The notes beneath the pieces are model-generated. The model was given only the letters and a program-made list of their open reading frames with translations. It was not told the origin of the DNA and did not search any database. Positions 1 through 26,665 of a stretch of 64,000 nucleotides of DNA are shown here, in pieces (position 1 is the stretch's first letter; each line of letters opens with the position of its first letter). The translations under genes were made by a program, and so were the position numbers. The stretch is from Bacteroidales bacterium (GTDB lineage Bacteria > Bacteroidota > Bacteroidia > Bacteroidales > WCHB1-69), in contig JAFXTS010000008.1 in the NCBI GenBank assembly GCA_017535665.1, positions 7,165 to 71,164 on the forward strand. Reading direction: 5' to 3'.

Positions 1-2
1 TA

Positions 3-821
3 GTGATTGAGGAGAAGGCCACCTTGCCGAAGCAGAGTGTGACCACCGACGAGTTGTTCACAGTAACGCATCCCGATGAGAGCGGGGTGGCGACCATCGC
101 GGTGAAAAAGGCCGATGCCCGAGAATTAGGCCCCTCGGTGCATTCCACCAAAACCACCATCCCCTTTGTGAAGAACAACGAGTTCGACTATGCGTGGTTC
201 ACGCGCTGGCTGGGTGATGAAGACGGTCGCTGGTCGTTCCTTTTCTACATTCCCATCATCATCTTCATCATCGCGGCGGTGTCGAACGGAGCCAACCTGA
301 CAGACGGTTTGGACGGTTTGGCCACCGGCACGTCGGCAACGGTAGCGGTGGGATTGGCCATACTGGCTTACGTATCGGGCAATGCCATCTTTGCCAATTA
401 CCTGAACATCATGTACATACCCAATATTGGGGAGCTGGTGATTTTCATCTCCGCGCTGGTGGGAGCCTGTATCGGTTTCTACTGGTGGAACTGTTTTCCG
501 GCGCAGGTCTTCATGGGCGATACCGGCAGTTTGACGTTGGGCGGCATCATCGCGGTGTCGTGTGTCATCATCCGCAAGGAACTGCTCATCCCGCTGCTCT
601 GCGGCGTGTTCCTCATCCAGAGCCTGTCGGTCATCATGCAGGTAAGTTATTTCAAATACACCAAAAAGAAATATGGAGAGGGACGCAGAATCCTGCTCAT
701 GTCGCCTTTACATCATCATTACCAGAAAAAAGGCATGCATGAATCAAAAATCGTTCAACGCTTCATTGTGGTAAGCATTTTATTAGTCGTATTAACATTG
801 GTAACCTTAAAAATCAGATAG
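3..821 (+). CDS. mraY: Phospho-N-acetylmuramoyl-pentapeptide transferase MraY, C-terminal ~272 aa (5' end lies outside the window)
   Basis: Motifs [23 protein letters not shown] and [11 protein letters not shown]. The Bacteroidota-type insertion [13 protein letters not shown] is present. The ORF is open to the window edge. Confidence 0.92.
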
Positions 822-823
822 TT

Positions 824-1381
824 ATGAAGAAGAGCAGAAACAGCATCAAGGGAGAATACATTTACGGAACTGGCATTTCCGGAAGCAGCGTACGGGATTT
901 CCAGCAGTTGTTGGAGTTGCGCGAAAGCCAGATGTCTGCACAAAAAGGCTTTTTCGACGGTATTGAGCATCGGATGGAGAATGTGAAGACTTTCCGTGGC
1001 GTGAATTTCATCAACGACGCCGCTTGCGAAAGCGAAAACGGCATCTATATGGCCTTGTCGAACGTGTCGAAGCCAGTGACTTGGATCACCTCTTTCACGG
1101 GCTGGGACCACATTGACGACAAACTCTTGCAGATGATCATCCGCAAAGTGAAGGCGATTGTTTTTTATGGGGAAGAGGATGAAAAGACGCGCAACTTCAT
1201 TGATGTGCTCAACATCCGCAGCGACAACAGCGAAGACATGGAGACGGCCGTACGGATGGCCTTCTATGCCAGTTCGCAGGATGACGTGGTGCTGTACTCC
1301 CCCGGAACCCCCCGCGAAGAGGGTGCTAACACGGTGGCAAAACGCGGCAATGAATTCAAAATGTCAGTAGCACAACTGTAA
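824..1381 (+). CDS. MurD-like protein of 185 aa. It has a Rossmann-like N-terminal stub joined to a degenerate MurD C-terminal domain, with no central ATP-binding domain. Possible decayed gene.
   Basis: It sits in the canonical murD slot between mraY and ftsW. IEHRMENV..GVNFINDA..VLYSPGTP..RGNEFK is colinear with the MurD C-terminal domain (HRLE..FINDSKATN..LLSPACASFD..RG..F). No GxxGKT P-loop is present. Confidence 0.6.
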   Translation: MKKSRNSIKGEYIYGTGISGSSVRDFQQLLELRESQMSAQKGFFDGIEHRMENVKTFRGVNFINDAACESENGIYMALSNVSKPVTWITSFTGWDHIDDKLLQMIIRKVKAIVFYGEEDEKTRNFIDVLNIRSDNSEDMETAVRMAFYASSQDDVVLYSPGTPREEGANTVAKRGNEFKMSVAQL

Positions 1382-1382
1382 T

Positions 1383-2558
1383 ATGGCCCTGAAACCCCTA
1401 CCATCCCTGAAATTCTACCACATCATCTATGTCTGTGTGGCGGTACTGGTGGCGGTCTCCGTCGTCGCCTCGTACAGTCTTACCGGTGAGTTGTGGCAGC
1501 CCATCCTGCAAGGCATCGGCGGGTTCGTGCTGATGATTGTCATATCGAAAATCAACTATCAGAAAATCAATCGTTTCTACCAGATATTTTTCGTATTGGC
1601 ATTGCTGCTGCTATTGCTGACGGTTATCTTTGGCAAGGGTGGTGGTGGACGAAGTCTGTCGCTCGGTTTCATGTCGTTCCAGACCTTCTATCTGGTGACC
1701 ATCCTTTATCTGTTCTATCTCTGCACCAAGTCGGCCTACGAAATGTCGAACGGCATCACCTTAGATGCGAAAAAGTCAGCGGTAAGGCTCACTGTTTTCG
1801 CCATTTTCACAGGCCTGATTGCCATGAGAAATATCTCCACCGCAATGCTGCTGTTCGGTACGGGATTGTTGGTATTGTATGTTTCAGGCATAAAACTGAA
1901 ATACTTGGGGATATTCATGCTGGCCATCATGTTAGCAGGCGGCCTCTATATTGGGGGAAGTGCGCTGAAAGACAAAGGCAAGAGTGAGCAGGTGCAGAGC
2001 GAGGAGACCAAGACCCGTGGTGGCACCGGCTACAACCGTATCAAATACTGGCTGACAGGCGAGAGTGATGTAGAGGGCTATGGTCGCCAGATGACTTTGG
2101 CACGTACTGCAGTAGCCCGCTCAGCGCATTTTCCGCAACCCGGCAAGGGCATCATCAAAGACAAGATGCCAGAAGGAGAGAACGACTTCGTATTCTCGCT
2201 CATCTGTGAAGAGTTATCTGTGGGGGTGGGCATTCTTCTTATAGTCCTCTATTTCATTATCTTTTTCAACATTACCTTTTACATCTCAAGGAAAGCGAAG
2301 GGCAATTTTGTGAAACTATACTCATTGGCGATTGCTTTGCTTATGTTGGGACAGGTGTTCATCCATATTGGCACCAACATCAACCTAATACCTGCTACAG
2401 GGCAGACGCTACCTTTTGTAAGTCGCGGTTCCACAGCTCTTTTCACCACATTTTTCATCTTCGGAACGCTGATCAACATGGGCAAACAAGTATTGATGAA
2501 CGCGGATGCTGACGACACCGAACTGAATATTGAATCACCAATTATCAATCCAAAATAA
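1383..2558 (+). CDS. ftsW: FtsW/RodA/SpoVE (SEDS) family cell-division protein
   Basis: Multi-pass membrane protein. MPEGENDFVFSLICEELS and GQTLPFVSRGSTALF match SEDS motifs but are somewhat divergent. Position follows mraY and murD. Confidence 0.8.
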   Translation: MALKPLPSLKFYHIIYVCVAVLVAVSVVASYSLTGELWQPILQGIGGFVLMIVISKINYQKINRFYQIFFVLALLLLLLTVIFGKGGGGRSLSLGFMSFQTFYLVTILYLFYLCTKSAYEMSNGITLDAKKSAVRLTVFAIFTGLIAMRNISTAMLLFGTGLLVLYVSGIKLKYLGIFMLAIMLAGGLYIGGSALKDKGKSEQVQSEETKTRGGTGYNRIKYWLTGESDVEGYGRQMTLARTAVARSAHFPQPGKGIIKDKMPEGENDFVFSLICEELSVGVGILLIVLYFIIFFNITFYISRKAKGNFVKLYSLAIALLMLGQVFIHIGTNINLIPATGQTLPFVSRGSTALFTTFFIFGTLINMGKQVLMNADADDTELNIESPIINPK

Positions 2559-2565
2559 TATTATT

Positions 2566-3540
2566 ATGAAAAAAGTCTTTACAACCTTATTCGCAGTTTT
2601 AGCCATGACCTTTGCCTTCGCACAGGTCGCAGTACCCAATGGCGGTTTAGAAGAGTGGACCGACACCCACACTCCCGTAGGCTGGAACGCCACGTTCAAC
2701 GCCTCTGTACCCGTAGATTACCTGGGATACACATTGGACGTCATCATCAATTACCAGGCGGCCACCCGCAATGCCACCGCACACTCAGGCAGTTATGCAG
2801 CGCAAATCACCACCCAGGCCGCCAATGCAACGATGGCTGGTCAAACCATCTATTCCATCAACCTGCCCGGCATCATGCACCTTGGCGAATTCAACGTGGA
2901 TGCCATCTCCACCTTGGATGTCGGATCTGTCACGGACCCCTCCAGCATTGACTGGACCCAATATCTGACGGGCGGTATCGCCTGCAACCAAGTGCCCAGC
3001 AAGGTGACCGCATGGGTGGCCTACACCACCACCGAGGACACCCTCACCGCCGGCGTTGTACTCACCCGCTGGAACAATGGTCAGCGCGAGGTAGTGGCTG
3101 AAGGACGTTATGAATACGACCAGGAAATCAGCGACTACATGCAAATTGAAATCCCTGTGACTTACAAGGACGGCATGGAAGGCGTTACCCCTGACACGCT
3201 CAACATCATTTTCGCCAACTCGGGAGGCTCCACCAACGAGAACACCCTGCTGTCAGTTGATGACGTAGAGATTGAGATGGGCGACAACATCTATGAGGTG
3301 AGCAGCCTGCCGCTGTTCAGCGTTCGCCCGAATCCCGCTACCGAAATGGTGATTCTCACCCCCTTCACCGATGAGAGCTACTCAGCCCGCATGTACGACA
3401 CCAACGGCAAGTTAGTGTGGTCGGCCGACAATGTGAATGGCGAAACCCAGCTCAATGTGAGCGAATTCACCAAGGGTGTGTATTTCCTCCAGATGAAGCA
3501 AGGCAGCAACGTGAAGAGCGAGAAGGTGATCGTGAAATAA
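2566..3540 (+). CDS. Secreted protein with a T9SS C-terminal sorting domain
   Basis: Signal peptide MKKVFTTLFAVLAMTFAFAQ. C-terminal RPNPATEMVILTP...GVYFLQMKQG..KVIVK is a typical T9SS CTD. ATG at 2566 chosen over the longer ORF. Confidence 0.75.
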   Translation: MKKVFTTLFAVLAMTFAFAQVAVPNGGLEEWTDTHTPVGWNATFNASVPVDYLGYTLDVIINYQAATRNATAHSGSYAAQITTQAANATMAGQTIYSINLPGIMHLGEFNVDAISTLDVGSVTDPSSIDWTQYLTGGIACNQVPSKVTAWVAYTTTEDTLTAGVVLTRWNNGQREVVAEGRYEYDQEISDYMQIEIPVTYKDGMEGVTPDTLNIIFANSGGSTNENTLLSVDDVEIEMGDNIYEVSSLPLFSVRPNPATEMVILTPFTDESYSARMYDTNGKLVWSADNVNGETQLNVSEFTKGVYFLQMKQGSNVKSEKVIVK

Positions 3541-3547
3541 TTCGGCT

Positions 3548-4498
3548 TTGGAAGCAAACATCACTTTCATACTCGCGCCGCTACACGGCATCACGAACTA
3601 TCATTTCAGAAACTGTCTTCACCGTCATGTCGGAGAAATCGATGTGGCGGTGACGCCTTTTTTGGCGGCGCAGGAGCTGGCGAAGCTGAACGTGCGGAAA
3701 TGGCCCGACATACAGCCCACAAACAACACTGGAATGACCATCATCCCGCAGCTGATGGGCAATGAGCCCCGGCAGATGACCGACACCCTGAAGGCGCTCT
3801 CCACGTTAGGCTACCAGCAGGTGAATTGGAACATCGGCTGTCCGTCGGCGCAGGTGGTTCGCAAACAGCGGGGCTGCGGACTGATGCCGCACGCCGACAA
3901 GGTGGAGGCGGTGGTGGCCGCCGCGAGCCGCGAGGTGCCCGAATGTCACTTCTCGGTGAAAATGCGCACCGGCTGGTCCAACCCCGCTGAGGGACTGGAG
4001 ATTATCGAGCGGCTGAACCCCTACCCTATCGACTTCATCGCCATCCACCCGCGCTTAGGCGTGCAAGAGTACAACGGCACTCCCGACTGGGAACTGTTCG
4101 GAGAGATGTGCGAGAGGACGCGCCACCGCATCGTGTATAGCGGCGACATCGTAGACCTCGACTCTTACCTACGGTTCCGAGCCTGCTTCCCGGATGTCAC
4201 CGACATCATGTTAGGGCGTGGCATTTTGAGAAATATCTTTCTGGCAGAAGAACTCACAGCCGGAGAAACCCTCCCGCTGGAGGTGAAACGCCAGCGGTTC
4301 GCCGACTTTTACCACGATTTAATAGAGACATTGGCGGAAGCCCGCGGACGGCAGCACATCCTGTCGCTGCTGAAAGAGCTGTGGCATTACTTCGCCACAT
4401 TTTACCAACTTTCACCACAAGAATTAACTAACCTGCTACGCATCACCGACATCGATGAGTTCGAGCGGCGAACAATGGAAATCGCCGGGAAGGAGTAA
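3548..4498 (+). CDS. tRNA-dihydrouridine synthase family protein (TTG start in the ORF track)
   Basis: LAPLHGITNYHFR, NIGCPS..VVRKQRGCGLM and IHPR are Dus-family TIM-barrel motifs. Confidence 0.75.
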   Translation: MEANITFILAPLHGITNYHFRNCLHRHVGEIDVAVTPFLAAQELAKLNVRKWPDIQPTNNTGMTIIPQLMGNEPRQMTDTLKALSTLGYQQVNWNIGCPSAQVVRKQRGCGLMPHADKVEAVVAAASREVPECHFSVKMRTGWSNPAEGLEIIERLNPYPIDFIAIHPRLGVQEYNGTPDWELFGEMCERTRHRIVYSGDIVDLDSYLRFRACFPDVTDIMLGRGILRNIFLAEELTAGETLPLEVKRQRFADFYHDLIETLAEARGRQHILSLLKELWHYFATFYQLSPQELTNLLRITDIDEFERRTMEIAGKE

Positions 4499-4584: not shown

Positions 4585-5718
4585 TTACAGACGGGTGGAA
4601 AGCTTCGGCACCATTTGATTCTTCCACTCGGTGAAACAGCCTCCGGCGATTTTCTGGCGGGCAACCGTCACCAATTCGAGATAGAAGTGAAGGTTGTGCA
4701 GCGATCCGATCATCTGGCCAAGAATTTCATTGGCAGTATAGAGGTGACGCAAGAAGGCACGGGTATAGAGGCGGTCGGCGGGCAGGTCGCTGTTGGCATC
4801 CAGTGGCGTAAAATCTTCCTTCCACTTTTCATTACGCATATTCAAAATGCCATCCCAAGTAAAGACCATGCCGTGACGGCCAGCACGCGAAGGCATCACA
4901 CAGTCGAACATATCCACACCGAGAGCAATGTTTTCGAGGATGTTAACCGGTGTGCCAACGCCCATGAGGTAGCGGGGCTTGTCGGCGGGGAGCTGACGGC
5001 AGCAATGGTCGGCCATCTCGTACATCATTTCAGTAGGCTCGCCTACGGCAATGCCACCGATGGCGATGCCGTCGCTATCGTACTTGACAATTTCCTCCAT
5101 GGAGCGGCTGCGGAGGTCCTTGAAGACGCTACCCTGCACGATGGGAAACAGCGACTGATAGTGACCGTATTTGGGTTCGGTCTGTTTGTAGTGCTTCCAA
5201 CAGCGATCAAGCCAGCCGAGGGTGATGTCGAGCGACTTACGGGCATACTCATAGTCGCACGGATAGGGCGGGCATTCATCAAATGCCATCATAATATCGG
5301 AGCCTATAGAGCGCTGTATGTCAATTACTTTCTCGGGACTAAAAAGGTGGCGGGAGCCGTCGATATGCGACTGGAACCAAACGCCCTCTTCGGGTTTGAT
5401 TTTACGACATTTGCTAAGGGAGAACACCTGGAAGCCGCCACTGTCGGTGAGGATGGGGCGGTCCCAGCCATTGAAACGATGGAGCCCGCCGGCGGCCTCG
5501 ATGACCTCCATACCGGGGCGCAAATAGAGGTGGTAAGTGTTACCGAGAATAATTTGGGCCTTCACACCATCGCGTAAATCATTGGTATGCACAGCTTTGA
5601 TAGCCCCCAAGGTACCCACCGGCATAAAGATAGGAGTTTGAATGGTGCCATGATCTGTGGTGATGACACCCGCACGCGCCGAGCTATGGGCATCCTTGTA
5701 TTCAATTGTAAACTGCAT
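4585..5718 (-). CDS. tgt: Queuine tRNA-ribosyltransferase
   Basis: TDHGTIQTPIFMPVGT, LGNTYHL, TDSGGFQV and MFDCVMPSR. ATG at 5718 (MQFTIEY). Confidence 0.93.
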   Translation of the reverse strand: MQFTIEYKDAHSSARAGVITTDHGTIQTPIFMPVGTLGAIKAVHTNDLRDGVKAQIILGNTYHLYLRPGMEVIEAAGGLHRFNGWDRPILTDSGGFQVFSLSKCRKIKPEEGVWFQSHIDGSRHLFSPEKVIDIQRSIGSDIMMAFDECPPYPCDYEYARKSLDITLGWLDRCWKHYKQTEPKYGHYQSLFPIVQGSVFKDLRSRSMEEIVKYDSDGIAIGGIAVGEPTEMMYEMADHCCRQLPADKPRYLMGVGTPVNILENIALGVDMFDCVMPSRAGRHGMVFTWDGILNMRNEKWKEDFTPLDANSDLPADRLYTRAFLRHLYTANEILGQMIGSLHNLHFYLELVTVARQKIAGGCFTEWKNQMVPKLSTRL

Positions 5719-5780
5719 TCTGTTAATAATTTTCGGCAAAAATAAACTAAATCTTGCAAACTTTCCAATACATTTGCAAA

Positions 5781-6947
5781 ATGTTATTAACCATCTCCAT
5801 GTTCCTGGAATCTCTACCTCTATACGTCATTATCTGCCTGATTATCTTAGGTTTTGTAATAGTCTGTCTGTTACTCTACTATCTTGCTTTTTACGGTCGT
5901 TTTGTATTTCGTAAAGAGAAGAAGCACATTTTGTCGGAGGAATACCCGCCCATCTCCATCATCATCGTGGCGCACGACGAGGCGCACCATCTCATCAAGT
6001 CGTTGCCGGAGCTGCTGACGCAGGACTATCCGAACTACGAGGTGGTGCTGGTGAACGACAACTCGACGGATGAGACGCCGCAGTTGGCCATTGAGATGAA
6101 GAACAAGTACCACAACCTGCATTATGTGAACATGACCTCCTCGGTTTCGACAATGGAAGGCAAGAAATTCCCGATGGCCATTGGCATCCAGGCGGCAAAA
6201 TACGACCTGGTGCTGATGACGGGAGCGAGTTGCATGCCGTCGAGTCCCTACTGGCTGCGCCAAGTGGCCGGGCGGTTTGTGCGCAAAACTCGCGTGGTGT
6301 TAGGGCACGCCTCTTACGGACGGAAACCCGGTCTGTTCAACAAACTGCTGCACTACGACTCGTTAGAGACCTCCGTCATCGCCTTTTCGTACACCATCAG
6401 CGGAATGCCGGTGATGGCCGATGGACATAATCTGGCCTATCACAAAGGTATTTTCTTCAAAAACAAAGAGTTATACTTCCGCCATGCGCAACTGCCCTTC
6501 GGCGAAGACTGCATCTTCATCAACGAGGCCGTACATCACGATGCATGCAACGTGGTGGCCTCGCCCGAAGCCGTCATGGAACAATACCCCATCGATTTCT
6601 CCAAATGGATGCAAATCAAGCAGTTCGCCATCATCAGCCGCAGCTTCTACAAAGTCATCCCTCGTTTCTTGCTGAAGAGTTACAACTGGCTCTGTTTCCT
6701 GTTTCATGCCGCCGCCATCGCCTGCATCTGCCTGACCATTCTTCAACACAACTGGATCATGTTGGGCATTGTGAGCGGTGCTATCTTGTTGAAAATAGGG
6801 ATGCAGTACCTTGTTTTCGCCAAGGGCGCAGGCAAGTTGGGAGAGAAATCTCTTGTGCCGGGCATCTTTTTCTATGAAATCATCCTCACGCTATTGAGGC
6901 CATGGATTTATTTGGGTTCGAAATTTGAAAAATCAAAATGGAAATAA
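5781..6947 (+). CDS. Glycosyltransferase family 2, membrane-associated
   Basis: ISIIIVAHDEAHHL...YEVVLVNDNSTDET is a GT2 DxD-type N-terminal domain. C-terminal TM helices follow. First ATG at 5781. Confidence 0.75.
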   Translation: MLLTISMFLESLPLYVIICLIILGFVIVCLLLYYLAFYGRFVFRKEKKHILSEEYPPISIIIVAHDEAHHLIKSLPELLTQDYPNYEVVLVNDNSTDETPQLAIEMKNKYHNLHYVNMTSSVSTMEGKKFPMAIGIQAAKYDLVLMTGASCMPSSPYWLRQVAGRFVRKTRVVLGHASYGRKPGLFNKLLHYDSLETSVIAFSYTISGMPVMADGHNLAYHKGIFFKNKELYFRHAQLPFGEDCIFINEAVHHDACNVVASPEAVMEQYPIDFSKWMQIKQFAIISRSFYKVIPRFLLKSYNWLCFLFHAAAIACICLTILQHNWIMLGIVSGAILLKIGMQYLVFAKGAGKLGEKSLVPGIFFYEIILTLLRPWIYLGSKFEKSKWK

Positions 6948-7534
6948 CAAACTGCACCACCGACAAGGCGAAACGCGACGCGCTACTAGTGAAAGACGCC
7001 CTCGAAAACGGCAGTCAGAAGGCCTACTCCGACCTGATGCGCTACTACCGCGACCCGCTCTATTTCACCCTGTTGAAGATGATGAAGAATCCTTATGATG
7101 CGGAAGACCTCACCATCGAGGCATTCGGCAAGGCGTTCAAAAACTTGGAGAAATACACCACCGATTATGCCTTCTCGACGTGGCTTTTCAAGATTGCCAT
7201 CAACAACTGCATCGACTACATGCGCCGCAAGAACACCTCACCGCAGTGTGTGGACGAGGACTTCTGTCTGTTTGAAAACAGCTGCGAAGGCACGCCCATG
7301 CAGTCGCAGGAGGAGACTGTGATGCAGAAGGAGCGCGCCGAGATGATGCGCTGGGCCGTGGCACAACTCCGTCCTAAATATCGCACCCTCATTGAGTTAC
7401 GTTATTTCCAAGAACTTTCCTACGAAGAGATTTCCCAAGAGCTGAACATCAGCATGAACAACGTGAAAATTCAGCTTTTCAGAGCCAAGTACATGCTGGG
7501 GGCCATCATGGAAAAAATGAAGTACGCGATATGA
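6938..7534 (+). CDS. RNA polymerase sigma-70 family (ECF-type) factor
   Basis: Region 2 (DAEDLTIEAFGKAFKNL..FSTWLFKIAINNCIDYMRRK) and region 4 (LRYFQELSYEEISQELNISMNNVKIQLFRAK). Overlaps the upstream GT2 gene by 10 nt. Confidence 0.85.
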   Translation: MEITNCTTDKAKRDALLVKDALENGSQKAYSDLMRYYRDPLYFTLLKMMKNPYDAEDLTIEAFGKAFKNLEKYTTDYAFSTWLFKIAINNCIDYMRRKNTSPQCVDEDFCLFENSCEGTPMQSQEETVMQKERAEMMRWAVAQLRPKYRTLIELRYFQELSYEEISQELNISMNNVKIQLFRAKYMLGAIMEKMKYAI

Positions 7535-8478
7535 TTTACCCGTGGGGCGACACGCGCCGCTTCAACTCATACAAACGATTTTTACAACAGCAATTCGGCA
7601 CCCGTGTGCAGAAATTGACCCTTGACGCTGGTTTCACCTGTCCCAACCGCGACGGCACGGTGGGCACAGGCGGCTGCACCTACTGTCTGAACGACGCCTT
7701 CAACCCTTCGTACTGCACCCCCAACAAGAGCGTGGAGCAGCAGTTAGCCGAGGGCATGGAGTTTCACCACAACCGTTACCGCCGTGCTGGTGCGTACCTT
7801 GCTTATTTCCAAGCCTTTTCCAACACCCACGCTCCCCTGCCCCAGCTGAAAGAAATCTACCGGCCGGCGCTACAGAACCCGCTGGTGAAAGGCATCGTGG
7901 TGGGCACCCGTCCCGACTGTATCGACGCTGAAAAACTGGACTACTTCGCTGAACTTCAGCAGCGGATGTTCGTCTCCATCGAGTACGGGGTGGAGAGCTG
8001 CAACGACACCACACTGCGCCGTATCAACCGCGGGCACGACTTCGCCACGGCGGAACGCGCCATCCGGATGACAGCCGAAAGAGGCATCCATTGTGCGGCG
8101 CACTTCATTTACGGACTGCCTGGAGAAACGCCCGACGAATGGATGAAGGAGGTCGGCATCATCAACCAGCTGCCCATCAACGGCATCAAATTCCATCAAC
8201 TACAAATTATTAAAGGCACCAAAATGCAACAGGAGTTCATAGAATATCCTGCTGATTTTCATATTTTTACTACAGAAAATTATATTGATTTCATCGTAAA
8301 AATCACCGAACGGCTCAACCCTGCCTTCACCATAGAACGCTTTGCCGGAGAGGTGCCGCCGCGGTATCTGTTTGTCAACCTCTGGGGGCTGACGCGCTAC
8401 GATGTCATTCTGCAAAAAATCGAAAAAAGAATGGAAGAGTGCGACACTTGGCAGGGAAAGGTGAGCGTGCAGAGCTAA
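7531..8478 (+). CDS. TIGR01212-type radical SAM protein
   Basis: GFTCPNRDGTVGTGGCTYC cysteine cluster with the typical family layout. ATGA start/stop overlap with the sigma gene. Confidence 0.8.
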   Translation: MIYPWGDTRRFNSYKRFLQQQFGTRVQKLTLDAGFTCPNRDGTVGTGGCTYCLNDAFNPSYCTPNKSVEQQLAEGMEFHHNRYRRAGAYLAYFQAFSNTHAPLPQLKEIYRPALQNPLVKGIVVGTRPDCIDAEKLDYFAELQQRMFVSIEYGVESCNDTTLRRINRGHDFATAERAIRMTAERGIHCAAHFIYGLPGETPDEWMKEVGIINQLPINGIKFHQLQIIKGTKMQQEFIEYPADFHIFTTENYIDFIVKITERLNPAFTIERFAGEVPPRYLFVNLWGLTRYDVILQKIEKRMEECDTWQGKVSVQS

Positions 8479-8524
8479 ATTCAATATTTTTGTAAAATCA
8501 TCCACTTCTCTCAATTAAAAATTG

Positions 8525-8532
8525 TATTTTTG
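8525..8532 (+). promoter_or_regulatory. -7 box TATTTTTG upstream of the YD-like lipoprotein gene (a second copy is at 8485-8492)
   Basis: Exact TAnnTTTG match 22 nt before the ATG at 8555. Confidence 0.4.
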
Positions 8533-8554
8533 TCCCCGTTTTCAGAGAAGCATC

Positions 8555-9430
8555 ATGAACAAGCAACTCTTTCTATATCTGATGACTGTGATATGCCTGC
8601 TGTTGGCTGGCTGTCGAGAAAAGGGTAACGGAACAGACGAAAAAACCGTTTCGGCGGCCGACCGCACCAGTCTGCACGAGAACCACCTTCTTGGAAAAGT
8701 GAAGTCAGTGACTGACACTAAATATATGATTCTCCCATTTCCCGATGGCCACGACTCGCTGGTGTTCTTCTCTACCAAAAGCGACACTTACAACCAAAAC
8801 GGATGGCTCAGCGGAAGCGTGCTGACCAATGCCGATGGCGACACCCTCTATGTGATGAAAGTGACGTTTGACGCTAAAGGACATATCACCTTGAACGAGT
8901 TTTTTGATGGGGAGGGGAATAGAAAGGAACATACTGAATATCAGTATGATAATAAAGGATTTCGCGTAAAAGAAAGCCACTATCTCAACGACTCGCTCAC
9001 CTACGAGCACGTCTGCACCAACGATCCCAACGGCAACGTGGAACAGGTCACGGTCAACCAGGGCAATGACACCTACTACATGAATTACCTCAACGACAAC
9101 AACGGACTGCCGGTGCGCATCGACTGGATTTCTCCGAAAATGGGACAGGATGCTTATCAGCAGAACACCATCGAATACGACCAGAAGGGAAATATCATCA
9201 ACCGTACTGCCACCCTCAACGGTCGCAATGTGGAGTTCTACCATGCCCAGTACAACGACCAAGGACATCTTCTCAAAGAGGTTTATCAACGCTCGGAACC
9301 CACTCGTTTAGAGGAGATTGTGACCGAATATTCTAAGCACGACTCCCACGGCAATTGGACGCATCAGGAGAATAGCAAGAATCAACAACGTCATTTCGTT
9401 ATTGAAAGAAAAATTGAATACTATCATTAA
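8555..9430 (+). CDS. Lipoprotein with YD/RHS-like short repeats
   Basis: Lipobox LLLAGC. At least five x-[YF]-[DN]-x-x-G-x repeats (EYQYDNKGF, IEYDQKGNI, AQYNDQGHL, VTFDAKGHI, DTYNQNGWL). Confidence 0.55.
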   Translation: MNKQLFLYLMTVICLLLAGCREKGNGTDEKTVSAADRTSLHENHLLGKVKSVTDTKYMILPFPDGHDSLVFFSTKSDTYNQNGWLSGSVLTNADGDTLYVMKVTFDAKGHITLNEFFDGEGNRKEHTEYQYDNKGFRVKESHYLNDSLTYEHVCTNDPNGNVEQVTVNQGNDTYYMNYLNDNNGLPVRIDWISPKMGQDAYQQNTIEYDQKGNIINRTATLNGRNVEFYHAQYNDQGHLLKEVYQRSEPTRLEEIVTEYSKHDSHGNWTHQENSKNQQRHFVIERKIEYYH

Positions 9431-14941: not shown

Positions 14942-16339
14942 TCAGTGTTTCTTGCCGACAATGGCTTCCAGTTCGGCTACCGTTTTGGGCACGGCCTGAC
15001 CGAGCACGCGGTGGCTCTTGGCGGTCACCACCACGTCGTCTTCGATACGGATGCCGCCGAAGTCGAGGTAGCTTTCCAGCTTGTCGTAGTTGATGAAGTC
15101 GGCGAGGTGTTTTTGCTTGCGCCACAGCTCGATAAGCTTGGGAATGAAGTAGATACCGGGCTCCACGGTCATCACCATGCCGGGCTCGAGGGTGCGGGCC
15201 ATGCGGAGGTTGCGGGTACCGAAGATGTTGCTGCGCTTGAACTCTTCGTTGTAGCCCACATAGTCCTCGCCGAGGCCTTCCATATCGTGAACATCGAGGC
15301 CGAGCTGATGGCCGAGGCCGTGGGGGAAGAAGAGCGCGTGAGCGCCGAGGCGCACGCCCTCCTGCACATCGCCTTTCATCAGACCGAGGTCCTTGAGACC
15401 GCGCATCACGATTTCAGCGGCGGCAAAATGCACGTCGCGATAGGGCGTGCCGGGCTTCACCTTCTTGATGCCTTCCATGTTGGCTTTTAGCACAATCTCA
15501 TAGATATCTTTCTGTTTCTGAGTAAATTTGCCGCTTACGGGGAAAGTACGCGTCATGTCGGAGCAATAGTTCATCAGCCCTTCCACGCCGGAGTCCACCA
15601 GCAGGAGCTTGCCCTTCTGCAGTTCCACGTTGTGGTCGGTGTTGTGGAAGATTTCGCCGTGCTGGGTGAGGATGATGGGGAACGAAAAACCGTTGCCTTC
15701 GCCGTTGGCGATGCCGTCGGCGATACCCACCAGCTGGTGCTCGGTGGCGCCGGGTTTGCAGTTGCGCATCACGGTGGTATGCAGCTTCCATGCCATGTCG
15801 GCAGCCTTCTCCATCTCCGCAATCTCGCGAGCCTCCTTGATGGAGCGCATGGCGATGATGGCTTTATGCAGCTCGATGGAGGCGTAGCTGTTGATCACAT
15901 TCACGCTCTTCTGCAGCAGGTTGGCGAGGGTGATCTGGAGGTCGTGGCGATAGGCCTTGGTGAAGTGGATGGTGCGCGAGGCGTTTTGGCGGAGGTAGCC
16001 TTTCAGCTTCGACATCGGCATCGACTCGGTGATGCCCACCTGTGCGGCTAATGTGCTGATGGAAGGCTGGTCGCCCACCCAGATGATGTCGTCGATGGTG
16101 AAATCGTCGCCGAAGAGGATGGTGCGGTTCTCATCGATGTCGATGACTGCGGCCAGCGACGGAGCGGTGAGGCCGAAGTAGTAGATGAAGTTACTGTCCT
16201 GCCGGAAGTTATAAGTGTTGGCGGGATAGTTCATGGGGGCATCGTTGTTGCCGAGGAAGAGCAGCAGGCCGGAGCCCATTTTGCGGGCGAGCTCCTTACG
16301 GCGCGCCACATACACAGATTTTTCAAACAAAGGATTCAT
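14942..16339 (-). CDS. pepP: Xaa-Pro aminopeptidase (M24B)
   Basis: VDSGVE..YCSDMTRTF, HGLGHQLGLDVHD, EPGIY and IRIEDDV are metal ligand motifs. ATG at 16339. Confidence 0.88.
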   Translation of the reverse strand: MNPLFEKSVYVARRKELARKMGSGLLLFLGNNDAPMNYPANTYNFRQDSNFIYYFGLTAPSLAAVIDIDENRTILFGDDFTIDDIIWVGDQPSISTLAAQVGITESMPMSKLKGYLRQNASRTIHFTKAYRHDLQITLANLLQKSVNVINSYASIELHKAIIAMRSIKEAREIAEMEKAADMAWKLHTTVMRNCKPGATEHQLVGIADGIANGEGNGFSFPIILTQHGEIFHNTDHNVELQKGKLLLVDSGVEGLMNYCSDMTRTFPVSGKFTQKQKDIYEIVLKANMEGIKKVKPGTPYRDVHFAAAEIVMRGLKDLGLMKGDVQEGVRLGAHALFFPHGLGHQLGLDVHDMEGLGEDYVGYNEEFKRSNIFGTRNLRMARTLEPGMVMTVEPGIYFIPKLIELWRKQKHLADFINYDKLESYLDFGGIRIEDDVVVTAKSHRVLGQAVPKTVAELEAIVGKKH

Positions 16340-16514
16340 ATTGATATTTTTTACAATTAATAATTTTCTACTGCATAATTTGCGGACGGCAAAAGTACTC
16401 ATTTTTTAGGTTTCAACAAAAAATTTTACACACAAAGAAGAAGTTTTTTTCATCTTTTTTGTTGTGAGGGTTCACATTCCTGCTGTGAGGGGATAAATAT
16501 CCATTAAAAAAGTG

Positions 16515-16522
16515 TACTTTTG
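16515..16522 (+). promoter_or_regulatory. -7 box TACTTTTG upstream of the DUF4153-like gene
   Basis: Exact match 25 nt before the ATG at 16548. Confidence 0.4.
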
Positions 16523-16547
16523 CGGCATCAAACAATACCCCTTTCCC

Positions 16548-18380
16548 ATGAGCAATTTCAAAAACTGGTTCAAGAACCTGCTCGTCAACTTCACGCGAGT
16601 ATTCAAGCGTTATCCGGCCACCTGCTTCTTTGCAGCCCTACTGACTTTAGTGGTATTCGACTTCATCATCACCGACAACAACGGGGAGCCGTGGCCGTCT
16701 GAACGCACACTCATTTCCTGTGGATGGGGCTGCGGACTGGCAGTGCTGCTGAGTGCCGCCTTCGAGCTCTTCTGCAACATCCGTACGGTCAAGCTGTGGC
16801 AGCGTCTCACCGGCTTGGGCGTTATTGTGGTCATCGCAGCGGCGTGCGCGTGCGGATGTCTATTCGACCTTCTCACCATGGAGGTGCTGATTGCCATGGC
16901 CTTTGCAACCGTCTTGTGTCTGCTGCTGCCCATCAGCTACAGCCGCGACCCGTACAAGGTGTGGAACTATCATGCCAAATGGGTGTTGGCCTATTTCATC
17001 ACTGGCATCCTTTGTGAAATCGTTGCCCTGAGTATCGGAGGCATCATTTTTTCCATCGAACTGCTGTTCGATCTCCAACTGAACACACTGCTTGAGATGC
17101 TGTTCACCTTTGTAGGTTTTTTCCTTGTGCCCTGCTGCATGCTGGCCCTGATACCCACCGGCGAAGAGTCCTACAGTGCACAACCCAACCCACACAAGCT
17201 GGTACGTTTTTTGGCGCAATATATCCTGCTGCCGCTCATCTGCATAGAGGGTATCATCCTGTACATTTATGGTATCACCATCCTCGTACACTGGGAGTTA
17301 CCAGAAGGCGGCATCGTCGGTTTGGTGTTCTCGTATGCTATCATCGGCTCGTTCATCTGGTACCTGCTCATGCCCTATTTCCTCTCCGAAGAGAAACAGT
17401 GGGTGCGCTTTTTCCACCGAGGCTTCTTCATCTCGCTACTGCCCCTGCTGGTCCTGCTGTTCGTGGGCCTTTTCCGCCGCATCAGCGACTACGGGCTCAC
17501 CACCAACCGTTACATCGTTTTCGTCATCAGCGCGTGGTTCGTGGTCATCTCCATTATCTTCTCTATCAAAAAAATAAAAAATGTCACTCCTCTCCTGCTT
17601 TCGCTGCTGGTGGTGACGCTGCTCACGATGTTGGGTCCCTGGAGCATGAAAAACCTGCCCGACAGAATGCAGACGGCGCGGTTTGAAAAGTTGGCCACGG
17701 AGTATGGTCTGCTGAAAGACGGACACATTGTGGCGGCCGAAAAGCCCCTCAACGAAGAGCAGTGCTATGCCATGAGCCCCTGCATTGATTATTTCACAGA
17801 CTACAACTATCGCCATACAGATGAATTTATGCAGAAGTACTTTAACATGTCGGAAGATGAGTGCAAAGAATTAGCAGAAAAAGAACAAAAAAGCGTGAAG
17901 GATATACTGATGGAGCAAATGAATGGAAGGTATATTTGGTATCGCCGATATGATGCAGAAGTAGAACGTTATTTCTGTTTTCATAAAAGTGACACGCAAT
18001 CCCATCAGTTGCTCCCCACAAAGGACTATGACTATGTCTTTGCTTTCAGCAAATATAGTGATGAAAAGCGTAGTGAAACCTTCCATGGTGATAAGCTTCA
18101 AATTGACATTACCACTGAATTTAAGAAAGACAGCTGTATCACTTTCAAAATCAATGGGGATGAATTCCGTATCAATGTGTGCGACTCTCTACAGATTGCC
18201 CAAATGCTGCCCGAAAGTTCTGATTACACTTTGAAATTCCCCACCACTACCATCCACCACGAAGGTGAGCGGGTGTCGCTACTGTTAGATGTTTCCAGTT
18301 TGAGTATTCGTCAGAAAAACGATGGAGCCATCTTCATGGATGAGATCAGCTTCACCGGATTTGTGAGAAAGAAAGAGTAG
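16548..18380 (+). CDS. Large multi-pass membrane protein (DUF4153-like) with a soluble C-terminal domain
   Basis: About 10 predicted TM helices over the first ~370 aa, then a lower-GC soluble tail. Family assignment is from memory. Confidence 0.5.
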   Translation: MSNFKNWFKNLLVNFTRVFKRYPATCFFAALLTLVVFDFIITDNNGEPWPSERTLISCGWGCGLAVLLSAAFELFCNIRTVKLWQRLTGLGVIVVIAAACACGCLFDLLTMEVLIAMAFATVLCLLLPISYSRDPYKVWNYHAKWVLAYFITGILCEIVALSIGGIIFSIELLFDLQLNTLLEMLFTFVGFFLVPCCMLALIPTGEESYSAQPNPHKLVRFLAQYILLPLICIEGIILYIYGITILVHWELPEGGIVGLVFSYAIIGSFIWYLLMPYFLSEEKQWVRFFHRGFFISLLPLLVLLFVGLFRRISDYGLTTNRYIVFVISAWFVVISIIFSIKKIKNVTPLLLSLLVVTLLTMLGPWSMKNLPDRMQTARFEKLATEYGLLKDGHIVAAEKPLNEEQCYAMSPCIDYFTDYNYRHTDEFMQKYFNMSEDECKELAEKEQKSVKDILMEQMNGRYIWYRRYDAEVERYFCFHKSDTQSHQLLPTKDYDYVFAFSKYSDEKRSETFHGDKLQIDITTEFKKDSCITFKINGDEFRINVCDSLQIAQMLPESSDYTLKFPTTTIHHEGERVSLLLDVSSLSIRQKNDGAIFMDEISFTGFVRKKE

Positions 18381-18462
18381 TATTCGCAGGCGATTCATCA
18401 TATTTTCCGACTTTTTTCAAAAAAAATGCGACCAATTGCAAATCGCATACTATTATTATTTG

Positions 18463-18470
18463 TATATTTG
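18463..18470 (+). promoter_or_regulatory. -7 box TATATTTG upstream of the FN3/T9SS protein gene
   Basis: Exact match 44 nt before the ATG at 18515. Confidence 0.4.
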
Positions 18471-18514
18471 CCGATTCTTTTTTAGAAAATCATCATTATA
18501 AAAAAAATCTCAAT

Positions 18515-20551
18515 ATGAAGAAAACTTTTACCCTTTTCATGGTCGCTATGCTGACCGTTTTGTTCAGTTTTTGGTCAGGGAATGTGATGGCGCAGTGCAA
18601 TCCGATTTCGGTAACCGTCGCTTCTCCCTACAGTGAAGACTTCACCGGCTACACTGCCGTTTCCGACGTGGCCACGGCCGGCACCATTCCCGCCTGCTGG
18701 GACTACATCTACAGCGGCACCTCTGAGAACTACGAGCCGAAGGTGTTCAACGGCACCTACACGCCCCTCGCCAGCAACAATGCCATCGAGATCACCTCGG
18801 GCGGCACCTCGTTCATGGGTTTCATCACGCTGAGTGATGCCGGCACCAACAACTATGTCATCCTGCCAGAGTTTGCCAACGGTCTCGACGAGCTGCAGGT
18901 TGTGTTCAGCACGGCCATGTCGAGCGACACGGCCGGCGCGCTCACCCTCGGTTTCATGACCGACCCCGCTGACGCCAGCACCTTCACCGACATCACCGCC
19001 GTGCCGAGCAACAGCTATATCACCGACCGTTGCGTGACGCACGCCTTCACGCTGGGCAACTTCCCGCAATGTGCCAACATGCACGCGCGCCTCGCCTTCC
19101 GTTGGACCGACGCCAGCCGGGATGCCACCTCCACCGTGTGTATCGACAACATCGCCGTGCGGATCAAACTGAACTGCGAAGACCCGAGCAACCTCTACGT
19201 TTACGGCATCTCGCCCAACAGCGCCATCCTCGACTGGATACCGGGCGCCGACCAGCAGGAGTGGGAGCTGGACTGCAACGGCACACGCCAGCTCATCACC
19301 ACCCGTCCCTTCACCCTTACGGGTCTCACCCCCACCACCGAATACACGGTGAGCCTGCGCGGTGCCTGCGCGACCAACGACAGCTCGTACTGGTGCGTGC
19401 CCGTCACCTTCAAGAGCGCATGCCCCATCAACACCGTCGATGACGACAACGCCTTCACCGAGACCTTTGCCACCAGCGACCTCGACTGCTGGATGACCGA
19501 CATCGTGTCGGGCAGCGACGACTGGGGTGTCACCAACAGCGCCCACAGTGGCACCTACGGTGTAACCTACTCCAACTCGCTGTTCGGCGACCTGATGGGC
19601 ACCGAAGAACCCAGCATCATGGATATGCTCAGCATGTTCGGCGGCATGATGGACTTCGGCACAGGCTCGTCGTACCTCATCTCCCCCATCCTCGACCTCA
19701 CCGCCCTCACCATGCCGGCACGGCTCACCTTCTACCGTCGCCAGACCTCATCGATGGTGCCCCTTACCCTGCAGGTCTATTTCCGCACCTCCCCCACCGG
19801 CAACTGGGGCTGGCTCGCCCAGTACAACACCACCTCTTCCACATGGAACCTGGAGAGCATCAGCCTCCCCAACCCCTCCGCTGAATACCAGATTGCCTTC
19901 GTGAGCCTCGTGGACATGACCAACATGGGCGACATCATGGACATGAGCAGCATGATGGACCCCAACGCCACTTTCGACCTTGCCAGTGTCATCGACCTTG
20001 ACGACATCCGCGTGGGCGCCACCACCGACTGCGACGTGCCCGCCAGCATCCTCGCCTACAACATTGGCAACAACAGCGCCACCGTGAGCTGGGTGCCCGG
20101 CAATGCCTCCTCATGGGAAATTGAGTACGGTCCGAGCGGTTTCACACAGGGCACTGGCACCACGGTGACCTCCACCACCCACCAGTACACCTTTACCGGC
20201 CTTCAACCGCAGACCAGCTACGATGTTTATGTGCGTGGCGACTGCGGCAACAGCATCATCAGCGACTGGAGCCCCGTGACCCAGTTCACCACCACCTATA
20301 CCGGCATCAACGGCTACAGCCTTAACGCCCGTGTGGTGCCGAACCCCGCCACCGACCACTGCACCGTGGAGTGCGCCGCCACCTCCGGCGAAATCACCCT
20401 CTACGATGTCTGCGGCCAGCAGGTGCTTTCCACCCAGATTACTGGCAAGAGCACCGACATCAACCTGAACAACCTCTCTGAGGGCATCTATATGCTCCGC
20501 ATCGCCGCCGATGACCACACCACCACAACGGTCAAGATCATCAAGAAATAA
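18515..20551 (+). CDS. Secreted multi-domain protein with fibronectin-III-like modules and a T9SS C-terminal sorting domain
   Basis: Signal peptide. Two FN3-like segments (PSNLYVYGISPNSAILDW..EYTVSLRG and PASILAYNIGNNSATVSW..SYDVYVRG). CTD VVPNPATDHCTVE...GIYMLRI...VKIIKK. Confidence 0.75.
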   Translation: MKKTFTLFMVAMLTVLFSFWSGNVMAQCNPISVTVASPYSEDFTGYTAVSDVATAGTIPACWDYIYSGTSENYEPKVFNGTYTPLASNNAIEITSGGTSFMGFITLSDAGTNNYVILPEFANGLDELQVVFSTAMSSDTAGALTLGFMTDPADASTFTDITAVPSNSYITDRCVTHAFTLGNFPQCANMHARLAFRWTDASRDATSTVCIDNIAVRIKLNCEDPSNLYVYGISPNSAILDWIPGADQQEWELDCNGTRQLITTRPFTLTGLTPTTEYTVSLRGACATNDSSYWCVPVTFKSACPINTVDDDNAFTETFATSDLDCWMTDIVSGSDDWGVTNSAHSGTYGVTYSNSLFGDLMGTEEPSIMDMLSMFGGMMDFGTGSSYLISPILDLTALTMPARLTFYRRQTSSMVPLTLQVYFRTSPTGNWGWLAQYNTTSSTWNLESISLPNPSAEYQIAFVSLVDMTNMGDIMDMSSMMDPNATFDLASVIDLDDIRVGATTDCDVPASILAYNIGNNSATVSWVPGNASSWEIEYGPSGFTQGTGTTVTSTTHQYTFTGLQPQTSYDVYVRGDCGNSIISDWSPVTQFTTTYTGINGYSLNARVVPNPATDHCTVECAATSGEITLYDVCGQQVLSTQITGKSTDINLNNLSEGIYMLRIAADDHTTTTVKIIKK

Positions 20552-25185: not shown

Positions 25186-25210
25186 CCCATCATTATAACC
25201 ATTACCCACC

Positions 25211-26665
25211 ATGAAAATCGTCATCATAGGAGCCGGATTAGGAGGATTAGAATGTGGATATCTGCTTAGCAAACAAGGATTTGAAGTCTGCATTTTGGAA
25301 CAAGGGAAACAGATTGGCGGCTGTTTGCAATCGTTTGAACGCAAGGGGCATCGTTTCGACACCGGTTTTCATTATGTTGGGGGAATGGGCGAAGGCGAGG
25401 TATTGTACCGCCTGTTCGAAGATTTCAATCTGCTAAACTTGCCCTGGAAAGAACTCGACAGAGAGTGTTTCGATGAGGTTTATATAGATGGGAAAAAATT
25501 CTCCTATATTAATGGTTATGAGAATTTTGCAGAAGAACTTTCACGCCAATTCCCAAACCAAAGAGAAGCCTTACATCGTTATGCCTCCATATTAAAAAAT
25601 GCACAGGAAGGTCTGCAAGATTTCAGCAAGATGGCCGACAATCCGACCTCCCGCGAACTGATGACCACCTCCGCGTATAACTTTCTGCAACAGAACTTCA
25701 GCGATGAGAAGTTGCGCAACGTACTGTCGGCCACCTCGTTAAAAATGGACCTGCTCGCAGATTCACTGCCGTTCTATCTGTTCGCACAGATCAACGGCAC
25801 GTTCATTCAGAGCGCATGGCGGTTAGTTGGGGGCGGGCAGGTGATAGCCGACAGACTAGCAGACGGAATCCGCAGTTTTGGCGGCGAAGTACGCACACGG
25901 GTACAAGTTACGGGGATGCAGGTGGACAACGAGCGGGTGAGCCGAGTCCTCATCAACGGGGAGGAGGAAATGGCTTGCGACTTAGTCATTTCCGACATCC
26001 ATCCCAATATCTTGTTCCCGCTGCTTCCAGAAGGTGCTTTACGCAAGCGTTACATTCAAAGAATCAAGAATTTACATAATAGTTTCGGCGTTTTTACCGT
26101 TCATCTTCTCCTCAAAGAAAACAGCGTAAAATACCGCAACCGCAATCTGTTCATTCACCATCAGCCCGAGTTGTGGCGCACGGTGGAGCAGCCCGTTGAT
26201 GGCCGCACCCGCTCCATCGGAGTGCATTTTTCCGTTCCCGAAGACGGCGCCGAATACACCCGCAATATCGACCTTTTCATGCCGATGTATTGGCAGGAGG
26301 TGGCAGCGTGGGCCGACAGTCAGCCCCTGCGCAGACCCAGCGACTACGAGAGTTTCAAGCAACGCCGTGCCGAAGATGCCATCGCGCAAGTGCTTCCCTA
26401 TCTTCCTGAATTAAAAGGAAATATCGAACAGATTTTCACCTCCACGCCCCTCACCTACCACGATTATACCGGCACCTACGAAGGCAGCGCATACGGCATT
26501 TGTACCGATTGCAACAACCTGATGGTCACCATGTTGCCCACCAAGACGCCCCTACCCAACCTGTTCCTGACGGGACAAAGCATCAACTTCCACGGGGTGT
26601 TAGGCGTAACCGTGACGGCCAAAATCACTTGTGAACAAGTTATTGCAACTCTTCCAACGCTCTGA
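25211..26665 (+). CDS. NAD(P)/FAD-dependent oxidoreductase, phytoene-desaturase/retinol-saturase-like family
   Basis: MKIVIIGAGLGGLECGYLLSKQGFEVCILEQ is a dinucleotide-binding fold. C-terminal LFLTGQSI matches the family. Confidence 0.8.
   Translation: MKIVIIGAGLGGLECGYLLSKQGFEVCILEQGKQIGGCLQSFERKGHRFDTGFHYVGGMGEGEVLYRLFEDFNLLNLPWKELDRECFDEVYIDGKKFSYINGYENFAEELSRQFPNQREALHRYASILKNAQEGLQDFSKMADNPTSRELMTTSAYNFLQQNFSDEKLRNVLSATSLKMDLLADSLPFYLFAQINGTFIQSAWRLVGGGQVIADRLADGIRSFGGEVRTRVQVTGMQVDNERVSRVLINGEEEMACDLVISDIHPNILFPLLPEGALRKRYIQRIKNLHNSFGVFTVHLLLKENSVKYRNRNLFIHHQPELWRTVEQPVDGRTRSIGVHFSVPEDGAEYTRNIDLFMPMYWQEVAAWADSQPLRRPSDYESFKQRRAEDAIAQVLPYLPELKGNIEQIFTSTPLTYHDYTGTYEGSAYGICTDCNNLMVTMLPTKTPLPNLFLTGQSINFHGVLGVTVTAKITCEQVIATLPTL

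Follow-up and report, generated by a model that had tools for sequence, protein, structure and literature searches.

A stand-alone MurD C-terminal-domain gene, kept under purifying selection, lies in the murD position of the dcw cluster in uncultured Bacteroidales

What sits in the murD position of a division and cell wall (dcw) gene cluster when a normal murD is not there, and does it still serve the cell? The MurD reaction is regarded as a step of peptidoglycan synthesis that is universal and essential and is carried out by a single chain, and the enzyme is an antibiotic target. The question is raised by a 64,000 nucleotide (nt) stretch of the genome of a Bacteroidales bacterium common in the rumen (assembly GCA_017535665.1, contig JAFXTS010000008.1, positions 7,165 to 71,164), which we call the window, and in which the place between mraY and ftsW is taken by an intact open reading frame (ORF) of 185 amino acids (AAs) at 824..1381 (+ strand, stop codon included). 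Its reading frame, its match to model TIGR01087, a profile comparison with the PDB, AlphaFold2 (AF2) and Foldseek analysis, and its ratio of nonsynonymous to synonymous substitution rates (dN/dS) together mark it as a stand-alone MurD C-terminal-domain protein. We hold it to be somewhat better than an even bet that this selectively kept murD derivative is translated and serves the MraY/FtsW/Mur machinery as a non-catalytic accessory protein, the D-Glu-adding step being encoded elsewhere.

The resemblance to MurD is confined to the C-terminal domain. The murD equivalog model TIGR01087 aligns residues 44–182 with its positions 301–439 of 441 (E 2e-19), and at 69.9 bits against a cut-off of 211.95 the whole-protein score does not place the protein among the MurD ligases. 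The Pfam domain Mur_ligase_C (PF02875) stays under its gathering score (18.3 against 28.4 bits), while less degenerate clades of the same family of short proteins pass it in the precomputed PF02875 column. The 185 AA protein has no match to the N-terminal UDP-MurNAc-binding domain (PF21799/PF21377) or to the central domain Mur_ligase_M (PF08245), it has no GxxGK[TS] motif, and a profile built from the N-terminal plus central domains of 150 MurDs finds nothing at the locus. The original prediction, made from the letters alone, had described an intact 185 AA ORF that is colinear with only the C-terminal part of MurD and has no GxxGKT P-loop, and had expected Mur_ligase_M to be absent and Mur_ligase_C to be weak; all of this is borne out. 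When the family profile is compared with the PDB only MurD chains are found (for example 4buc, residues 290–440). A first AF2 model from a 23-sequence alignment was unusable (predicted local distance difference test score, pLDDT, of 54), and a rerun with 128 sequences reached a pLDDT of 82. In the latter, residues 1–21 are disordered (pLDDT <50) and residues 21–44 form a helix, followed by an α/β domain with pLDDT >90 across most of residues 51–160. The top 33 Foldseek matches of this model in the PDB are all MurD, over 139–151 columns with query TM-scores (TMq) of 0.57–0.66 (3lk7, for example, has E 5e-10, TMq 0.65 and a root mean square deviation of 2.8 over 141 columns), so the model has a six-stranded α/β fold superposable on the solved Mur ligase C-domains. 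The C-domain proper comprises residues 48–185 (965..1378, +), in which the EHR hinge motif, ND and RGxxF of MurD are kept.

What became of the rest of the gene? The first ~30 AAs (with the string IYGTGISGSS) had been taken for the Rossmann start of MurD, and the gene for a murD with an in-frame internal deletion, and neither idea survives alignment. The GxGxxG-like string is not conserved even inside the window clade, and when 150 full-length MurDs were scanned with a mini-profile of the 30 N-terminal AAs, every bit score was negative. In colinear alignments residue 1 falls at about MurD model position 258–262, which is the end of the central domain, and a "Rossmann start" was accordingly dropped. 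Other short proteins behave in the same way (TIGR01087 aligns residues 6–179 of P0368 with positions 266–439 and residues 23–184 of P0025 with positions 279–440), and the start coordinates are shared among the window protein, P0368, P0025, P0339 and P0356. The MAFFT alignment pairs Met1 with the Met of "..FTMTLEELALQGKHN.." and G10 with the Gly of the motif G.HN..N. Among full-length MurDs with this motif (the proteins examined were P0036–P0290), a Met nine residues before that Gly is present in 112 of 112 Flavobacteriales-like ones and in 11 of 31 from a diverse set. Because of the colinear coordinates and the Met alignment, the short gene is murD minus its first ~260 codons, with its start at a Met that was internal in the ancestral gene; the missing piece is thus the 5' part and not an internal block. 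Residues 1–27 (824..904, +) make up a clade-specific N-terminus, predicted to be disordered, which by position is a remnant of the last strand and the beginning of a helix of the central domain; within the window clade M1, K3, R5, S7, K9, G10 and Y12 are nearly invariant. The Met at this position in full-length MurDs could be a structural residue, or it could be an internal start from which intact genes already make a free C-domain.

Is this a real gene that is still in use? The index of the assembly collection lists the exact window protein in 190 blocks, and eight contigs (from different assemblies in ENA, NCBI and JGI, made by differing assemblers and up to 781 kb long) share the order mraZ-rsmH-ftsL-ftsI-murE-mraY-ORF-ftsW; on these two counts an assembly artefact was rejected. 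Thirteen GTDB species representatives carry the short gene, all of them metagenome-assembled genomes (MAGs) of rumen or hindgut Bacteroidales (one is labelled Lentimicrobiaceae), and that of RGIG6723 encodes a protein identical to the one in the window. The homologues form 23 clusters with 50–97% identity and lengths of 173–186 AAs, except for three shorter entries (135–172 AAs) that resemble truncated calls, and 43 alignment columns are invariant across the 23. The ORF is intact in 19 of the 19 loci checked. In six species pairs that are at least 79% identical, its dN/dS (Nei-Gojobori) is 0.041–0.110, where the same contigs give 0.029–0.058 for ftsW and 0.012–0.058 for mraY, with dS about 0.6–1.4. 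Two antisense ORFs (755..1111 and 862..1044) were disregarded because the codon-level constraint fits the + frame. A pseudogene relic, that is, a broken murD in neutral decay whose protein is not needed, would agree with the loss of conserved catalytic-site motifs (below), with the subthreshold Mur_ligase_C score and with the NCBI label of hypothetical protein on the homologues. It should also show dN/dS near 1 and frameshifts or stops in relatives, and it shows neither: the ratio is far below 1, and close to that of ftsW, at dS about 1, the length is held down to 50% identity, the invariant columns include former active-site positions, and the intact short form recurs through 13 species. We consider a pseudogene extremely improbable. 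The decaying relic that the original prediction had offered as one of two possibilities is thereby set aside, and its suggestion that the short form might be conserved in sister species with dN/dS below 1 is confirmed.

The ORF is closely joined to both of its neighbours, as had also been read at the outset. The 3' part of mraY occupies 3..821 (+; the window begins inside the gene; TIGR00445 positions 135–321 of 321 with E 3.4e-70, PF00953 with E 2e-23), and sister contigs encode full-length MraY proteins of 427–429 AAs. The mraY stop codon TAG (819–821) is separated by 2 nt from the ATG at 824 in the junction TAG TT ATG (819..826, +), and this 2 nt gap is identical in 10 of 12 related loci. 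At the other end the stop codon TAA (1379–1381) lies 1 nt ahead of the ftsW ATG at 1383 in the junction TAA T ATG (1379..1385, +), and here the gap is 1–2 nt in 14 of 14 related loci. The ftsW gene (1383..2558, +, 391 AAs; PF01098 E 3e-34, TIGR02614 E 1e-39) is the final dcw gene in this lineage. No terminator-like site was found between mraY, the short ORF and ftsW, and promoter/terminator and composition scans of window positions 1–4000 gave nothing beyond chance. Such conserved junctions on either side, with no promoter or terminator signal above chance between the genes, are what one would expect if the ORF were a translated spacer that only secures translational coupling, or correct ftsW expression after mraY, and whose AA sequence is irrelevant. 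A spacer of that sort would not hold a dN/dS of 0.05–0.1, 43 invariant residues and a well-predicted fold, and the tandem copies next to intact murD genes described below are likewise constrained; we regard it as very improbable. The window FtsW is itself highly divergent (TIGR02614 136.5 bits against a cut-off of 337.5), and at locus L034 a 400 AA gene in the ftsW position (4625–5827) has no Pfam hit on record.

Could the protein be a ligase by itself? We compared the short forms with 44 full-length MurDs at 18 scored positions. Residues are numbered as in E. coli MurD, and both this numbering and the ligand roles of the invariant C-domain positions follow the MurD structures. The residues that are invariant or nearly so in the 44 full-length proteins are H301, R302, N316, D317, K319, T321, G344, G345, K348, the S-P pair, S415, D417, R425 and G426. 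The window clade retains H301, R302, N316, D317, S-P and R425-G426, and has replaced K319 by A67, T321 by E69, G344/G345 by S90/F91 and K348 by W94, while the S415–D417 stretch is variable. In terms of motifs, NDSKATN has become NDAACES, GGxDK has become SFTGW and SPACASFD has become SPGTPREE, much as the degraded C-domain motifs had first been described. From its sequence, then, the window protein evidently cannot be a ligase alone. The replacement residues A67, S90, F91 and W94 are themselves invariant within the window clade, which indicates that the former MurD-invariant positions are under a new constraint and have not simply drifted or been lost. Different clades of the short family have different degenerate signatures, each conserved internally, and the short proteins P0368 and P0374 have the full-length residue at 18 of 18 scored positions.

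How widespread are such proteins? Searched with a first profile, 1.8 billion representatives yielded 5,424 matches, and many of the best 150 are 165–200 AAs long. A second profile gave 1,298 proteins at E <= 1e-5; among the 120 of these that were listed, 119 are 135–215 AAs long, and the sole exception, P0360 (280 AAs), is a full-length MurD truncated by the end of its contig. We define the short family by a length of 165–215 AAs, a start near MurD position ~260 and no N-terminal or central domain. By these measures (185 AAs, residue 1 at about position 258) the window protein is one of the family, which comprises about 1,300 clusters of proteins 165–215 AAs long in uncultured Bacteroidales/Lentimicrobiaceae. 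There is no NCBIfam model specific for it. The literature that we searched describes neither a free MurD C-domain protein nor a short gene in the murD position, and the recurrent stand-alone family appears to be undescribed there. One database protein, P0028 (303 AAs), consists of ~100 residues from the start of a short MurD-C homologue followed by a tyrosine-recombinase-like C-terminal half, and could be an integrative element within the gene or a chimeric assembly.

The genomic position of the family is remarkably uniform. The short gene lies directly 3' of mraY wherever that side is covered, including in the P0025, P0029, P0095, P0356, P0339, P0368 and P0374 lineages, and ftsW is the next gene in all of the about 25 loci whose contig extends past the short gene. 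The order mraY-short gene-ftsW is found at L001–L018, L022, L025–L030, L032–L034 and L116–L123 (L019–L021 cover only the mraY side and L023 only the ftsW side), and distant clades with 30–40% identity use the same position. Beyond ftsW the lineages differ: in the clades of the window and of P0356 the dcw cluster halts there, and murG and murC are next in the lineages of P0339, P0368 and P0374, with ftsQ, ftsA and ftsZ also present in the first two. For P0368 and P0374, which belong to a 182 AA class with intact motifs, the DNA shows true short genes after mraY and no gene-calling fragments; other 182 AA database entries with intact motifs, such as P0091 with its intact HN..N, may still be fragments. 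In the P0356 lineage rpoC and rpoB come after the break in the dcw cluster. In the P0025 lineage the cluster is interrupted between murE and mraY by KilA-N, ORF6N, RhuM-like and MntP genes (L019 1450–5346; L020 483–2369) that resemble mobile-element cargo.

Did the short form arise once? In a neighbour-joining tree of MraY, drawn with no bootstrap, the window clade joins the P0356 and P0339 lineages; the MraY proteins of that group are 69–96% identical to one another, and none exceeds 68% identity to the MraY of a locus with a full-length murD. L028 (the P0368 lineage) is nested among full-length loci, its MraY being 83% identical to that of L036, and L034 (the P0374 lineage) is nested elsewhere, with an MraY 75% identical to that of L043. 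FtsW agrees, as L028 is 50% identical to L031, which has a full-length murD, and 26–31% identical to the window clade. Because of this nesting and the concordant FtsW identities, the state in which only a short gene is present arose on at least three occasions in Bacteroidota, always with the same Met as the new start. The short genes of L028 (10001–10549) and L034 (3805–4353) keep all 18 signature residues and lie in otherwise complete dcw clusters. In L028 the 27-codon central-domain remnant has a dN of 0.29–0.41, compared with 0.08–0.11 among full-length relatives (3–4 times faster), while its C-domain proper is no faster than theirs (dN 0.19–0.24 against 0.16–0.21), and the C-domain therefore stays constrained after truncation.

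Free C-domains also occur where murD is whole. We scanned the JGI metagenomes with the full-length relative P0360 and obtained 80 Bacteroidota loci with an intact murD, and 14 of these 80 have the arrangement mraY-murD(full)-MurD-C ORF-ftsW with a MurD-C ORF of 165–190 AAs (L042 6883–7389, L043 3969–4475, L045 5024–5515, L081 6856–7344, L084 1582–2148 and nine more loci). These tandem ORFs (L042–L094) are like the window protein in being stand-alone 165–190 AA MurD C-domains directly upstream of ftsW that are partly degenerate at the conserved MurD residues and under constraint (dN/dS 0.06–0.23). They differ from it in coexisting with an intact murD and in starting ~15–20 residues later, with no central-domain remnant. 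In BLAST comparisons the window protein is nearer to the C-domains of full-length MurDs (84 bits) than to the tandem copies (66 bits), and the orthology of the two kinds of short gene is not established by this, because BLAST similarity cannot decide between two fast-evolving branches. Since the tandem ORFs coexist with an intact murD under purifying selection, they prove that selection keeps a free MurD C-domain even with a normal MurD alongside. We found no description of a tandem free MurD-C ORF in the literature searched.

Where, then, might the D-Glu-adding enzyme be encoded? The peptidoglycan pathway must run and must need UDP-MurNAc-L-Ala-D-Glu in these bacteria, because murE and ftsI are intact in the dcw cluster of the clade and mraY and ftsW are strongly constrained. 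We searched all six-frame ORFs of the window and of the flanks of related loci with phmmer and with a 150-sequence profile, and the only matches were murE and murC, apart from a weak one to a Rossmann-type amine oxidase at 25199–26662. Three kinds of observation weigh against our reading of a non-catalytic accessory protein. First, the 64 kb window and up to 10 kb on either side of more than 20 related loci contain no full-length murD and no ORF with N-terminal plus central domains. Second, H301, R302, N316, D317, R425 and G426 are conserved in nearly all short forms, which might be explained if these proteins still bound some nucleotide or docked on a central domain; in MurD, R302 touches ADP, H301 and R302 sit in the hinge loop, and the domain limits are likewise known (PMC4816537). 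Third, early short forms such as that of L028 may still bind ligands, because L028 keeps 18 of 18 signature residues and has an unaccelerated C-domain, and this would be more in line with an enzyme that is split or acts in trans than with a pure scaffold. A database query with P0036, which among full-length MurDs is nearest to the family profile, found only marine Flavobacteriales, which is uninformative on a murD elsewhere.

A split MurD, in which two pieces assemble non-covalently, would account for the conservation of the hinge and nucleotide-side residues (EHR, ND, RG) and for the 18 of 18 signature residues in the independent short forms of L028 and L034, with a C-domain in L028 that evolves no faster than in its full-length relatives. 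It would also fit the poor prediction of the N-terminal 44 residues (central-domain remnant plus helix) when modelled alone, as is expected of a partner-dependent segment. It is hard to reconcile with the replacement of K319, T321, K348 and S415 in the window clade and with the central-domain remnant, including G.HN..N, which degenerates first, even in L028; moreover, an ORF for the other piece is seen at no locus examined, window and flanks included, and free C-domains next to a complete murD require no complementation. We judge a split enzyme to be unlikely. A more radical possibility is that these bacteria have no MurD-type N-terminal and central domains at all, and that the C-domain works in trans with MurC/MurE or the dipeptide is made by another route. 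In keeping with it, murE (and murC where the cluster is complete) is the only other Mur ligase gene in the window or any flank, and at least three origins of the short-only state suggest that the loss is easily tolerated in this group. We know of no bypass of MurD alone, however, and this counts against it, as do murC and murE genes that are ordinary in length and domains and the loss of MurD-invariant residues in the window clade; further, the absence of a murD is unproven with <3% of any genome seen. We think it quite improbable. Another reading, which we find distinctly unlikely, is that the large uncultured Bacteroidales radiation with the short gene has no conventional MurD and makes a composite enzyme, the free C-domain docking in trans on the N-terminal and central domains of a half-MurD or of MurC/MurE. 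The window clade would then be a later stage in which the ligand or role of the C-domain had changed, and such an enzyme, if real, would give the first case in nature of a Mur ligase made of two pieces or sharing a module.

Under the accessory-protein reading that we favour, the short protein would be co-expressed with MraY and FtsW through the 1–2 nt gene junctions and would probably be an adaptor or regulator subunit of the cytoplasmic and membrane machinery for peptidoglycan precursors, one that keeps the docking surfaces and hinge residues of MurD and not its conserved active-site residues. If the protein is non-catalytic, the D-glutamate-adding reaction must come from a gene outside this locus, presumably a full-length murD. 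The kept fold, the new invariant residues and the conserved coupling to mraY and ftsW all support the other possibility in the original prediction, a repurposed non-catalytic MurD C-domain at the division locus.

How does this protein compare with known relatives? It shares with full-length MurD a homologous C-terminal domain of the same fold, the position between mraY and ftsW, and the EHR(L/M)E hinge, ND and C-terminal RGxxF; it differs in having neither the N-terminal UDP-binding domain nor the ATP-binding central (P-loop) domain, and in the replacement of K319, T321, G344/G345, K348 and the S415 region. PAP11 of plants serves the plastid-encoded RNA polymerase as a structural, non-ligase subunit. 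This MurE-like protein (PDB 8ras_Q and 8r6s_Q, Foldseek E about 1e-4) is thus a Mur-ligase relative inside another complex, although it is derived from MurE, is eukaryotic and belongs to a complex unrelated to cell-wall synthesis, and one of the two matched chains is a 539-residue entry. MurT of the MurT/GatD amidotransferase (PDB 6h5e, a weak structural match) also has the Mur-ligase fold, has another cell-wall job and works only with a partner; unlike the window protein it is catalytic and keeps the ATP-binding central domain, and its C-domain binds GatD. Natural MurD-FtsW chimeras exist in Proteobacteria and Actinobacteria, and MurD binds MurE-MurF with sub-micromolar affinity (PMC10214165). 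In the chimeras, as here, a MurD C-terminal domain lies beside FtsW, which supports a functional link between the two, but there the joint is covalent and MurD is complete and catalytic, whereas the window has a C-domain that is free and non-catalytic and whose only tie to ftsW is translational coupling. We infer an accessory role because of the tandem copies beside intact murD genes, the MurD-FtsW fusions, the MurD-MurE-MurF binding and the PAP11 precedent.

What would this mean for the bacteria concerned and for their annotation? A major group of gut, rumen and digester Bacteroidales has a conserved, domain-only derivative in the murD position, and the arrangement has arisen repeatedly. JGI automatically names the short proteins UDP-N-acetylmuramoylalanine--D-glutamate ligase, and NCBI calls them hypothetical protein and in one case cyanophycin synthetase, so pathway calls for murD are unreliable in both directions and automated reconstructions of these MAGs may score it wrongly as present or as absent. 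MurD is also among the GTDB bac120 markers. If a normal murD is encoded elsewhere, this is a clean natural case in which selection has made a non-enzymatic partner out of an enzyme domain in a division operon, and it would be a handle on the physical organisation of the Mur ligases, MraY and FtsW; if there is none, it is an unrecognised variant of the textbook pathway in abundant uncultured gut bacteria.

Pfam annotation of 44 window proteins gave no mur or fts genes besides mraY and ftsW, and murG, murC, ftsQ, ftsA and ftsZ are absent across the 64 kb. A protein with a type IX secretion system (T9SS) sorting signal (2530–3540) is encoded next after ftsW, followed by dus (3548–4498) and by tgt on the - strand (4585–5739). 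Behind tgt a sister species (79% identity; L001–L003, about 15000–20500) has a phage-like island with AlpA/HTH_17, SSAP_Sak and N6_N4 methyltransferase genes, and the corresponding place in the window (5754–9430) holds a family 2 (GT2) glycosyltransferase, a sigma-70 factor and a radical S-adenosylmethionine (SAM) gene. Further along, the - strand at 28220–30373 encodes a 717 AA secreted protein with a C10 (streptopain-like) peptidase domain and a prodomain like a Spi inhibitor, to which two CUB domains (E 2e-31) and a tail for T9SS sorting are added. CUB domains are, to our knowledge, unusual in bacteria.

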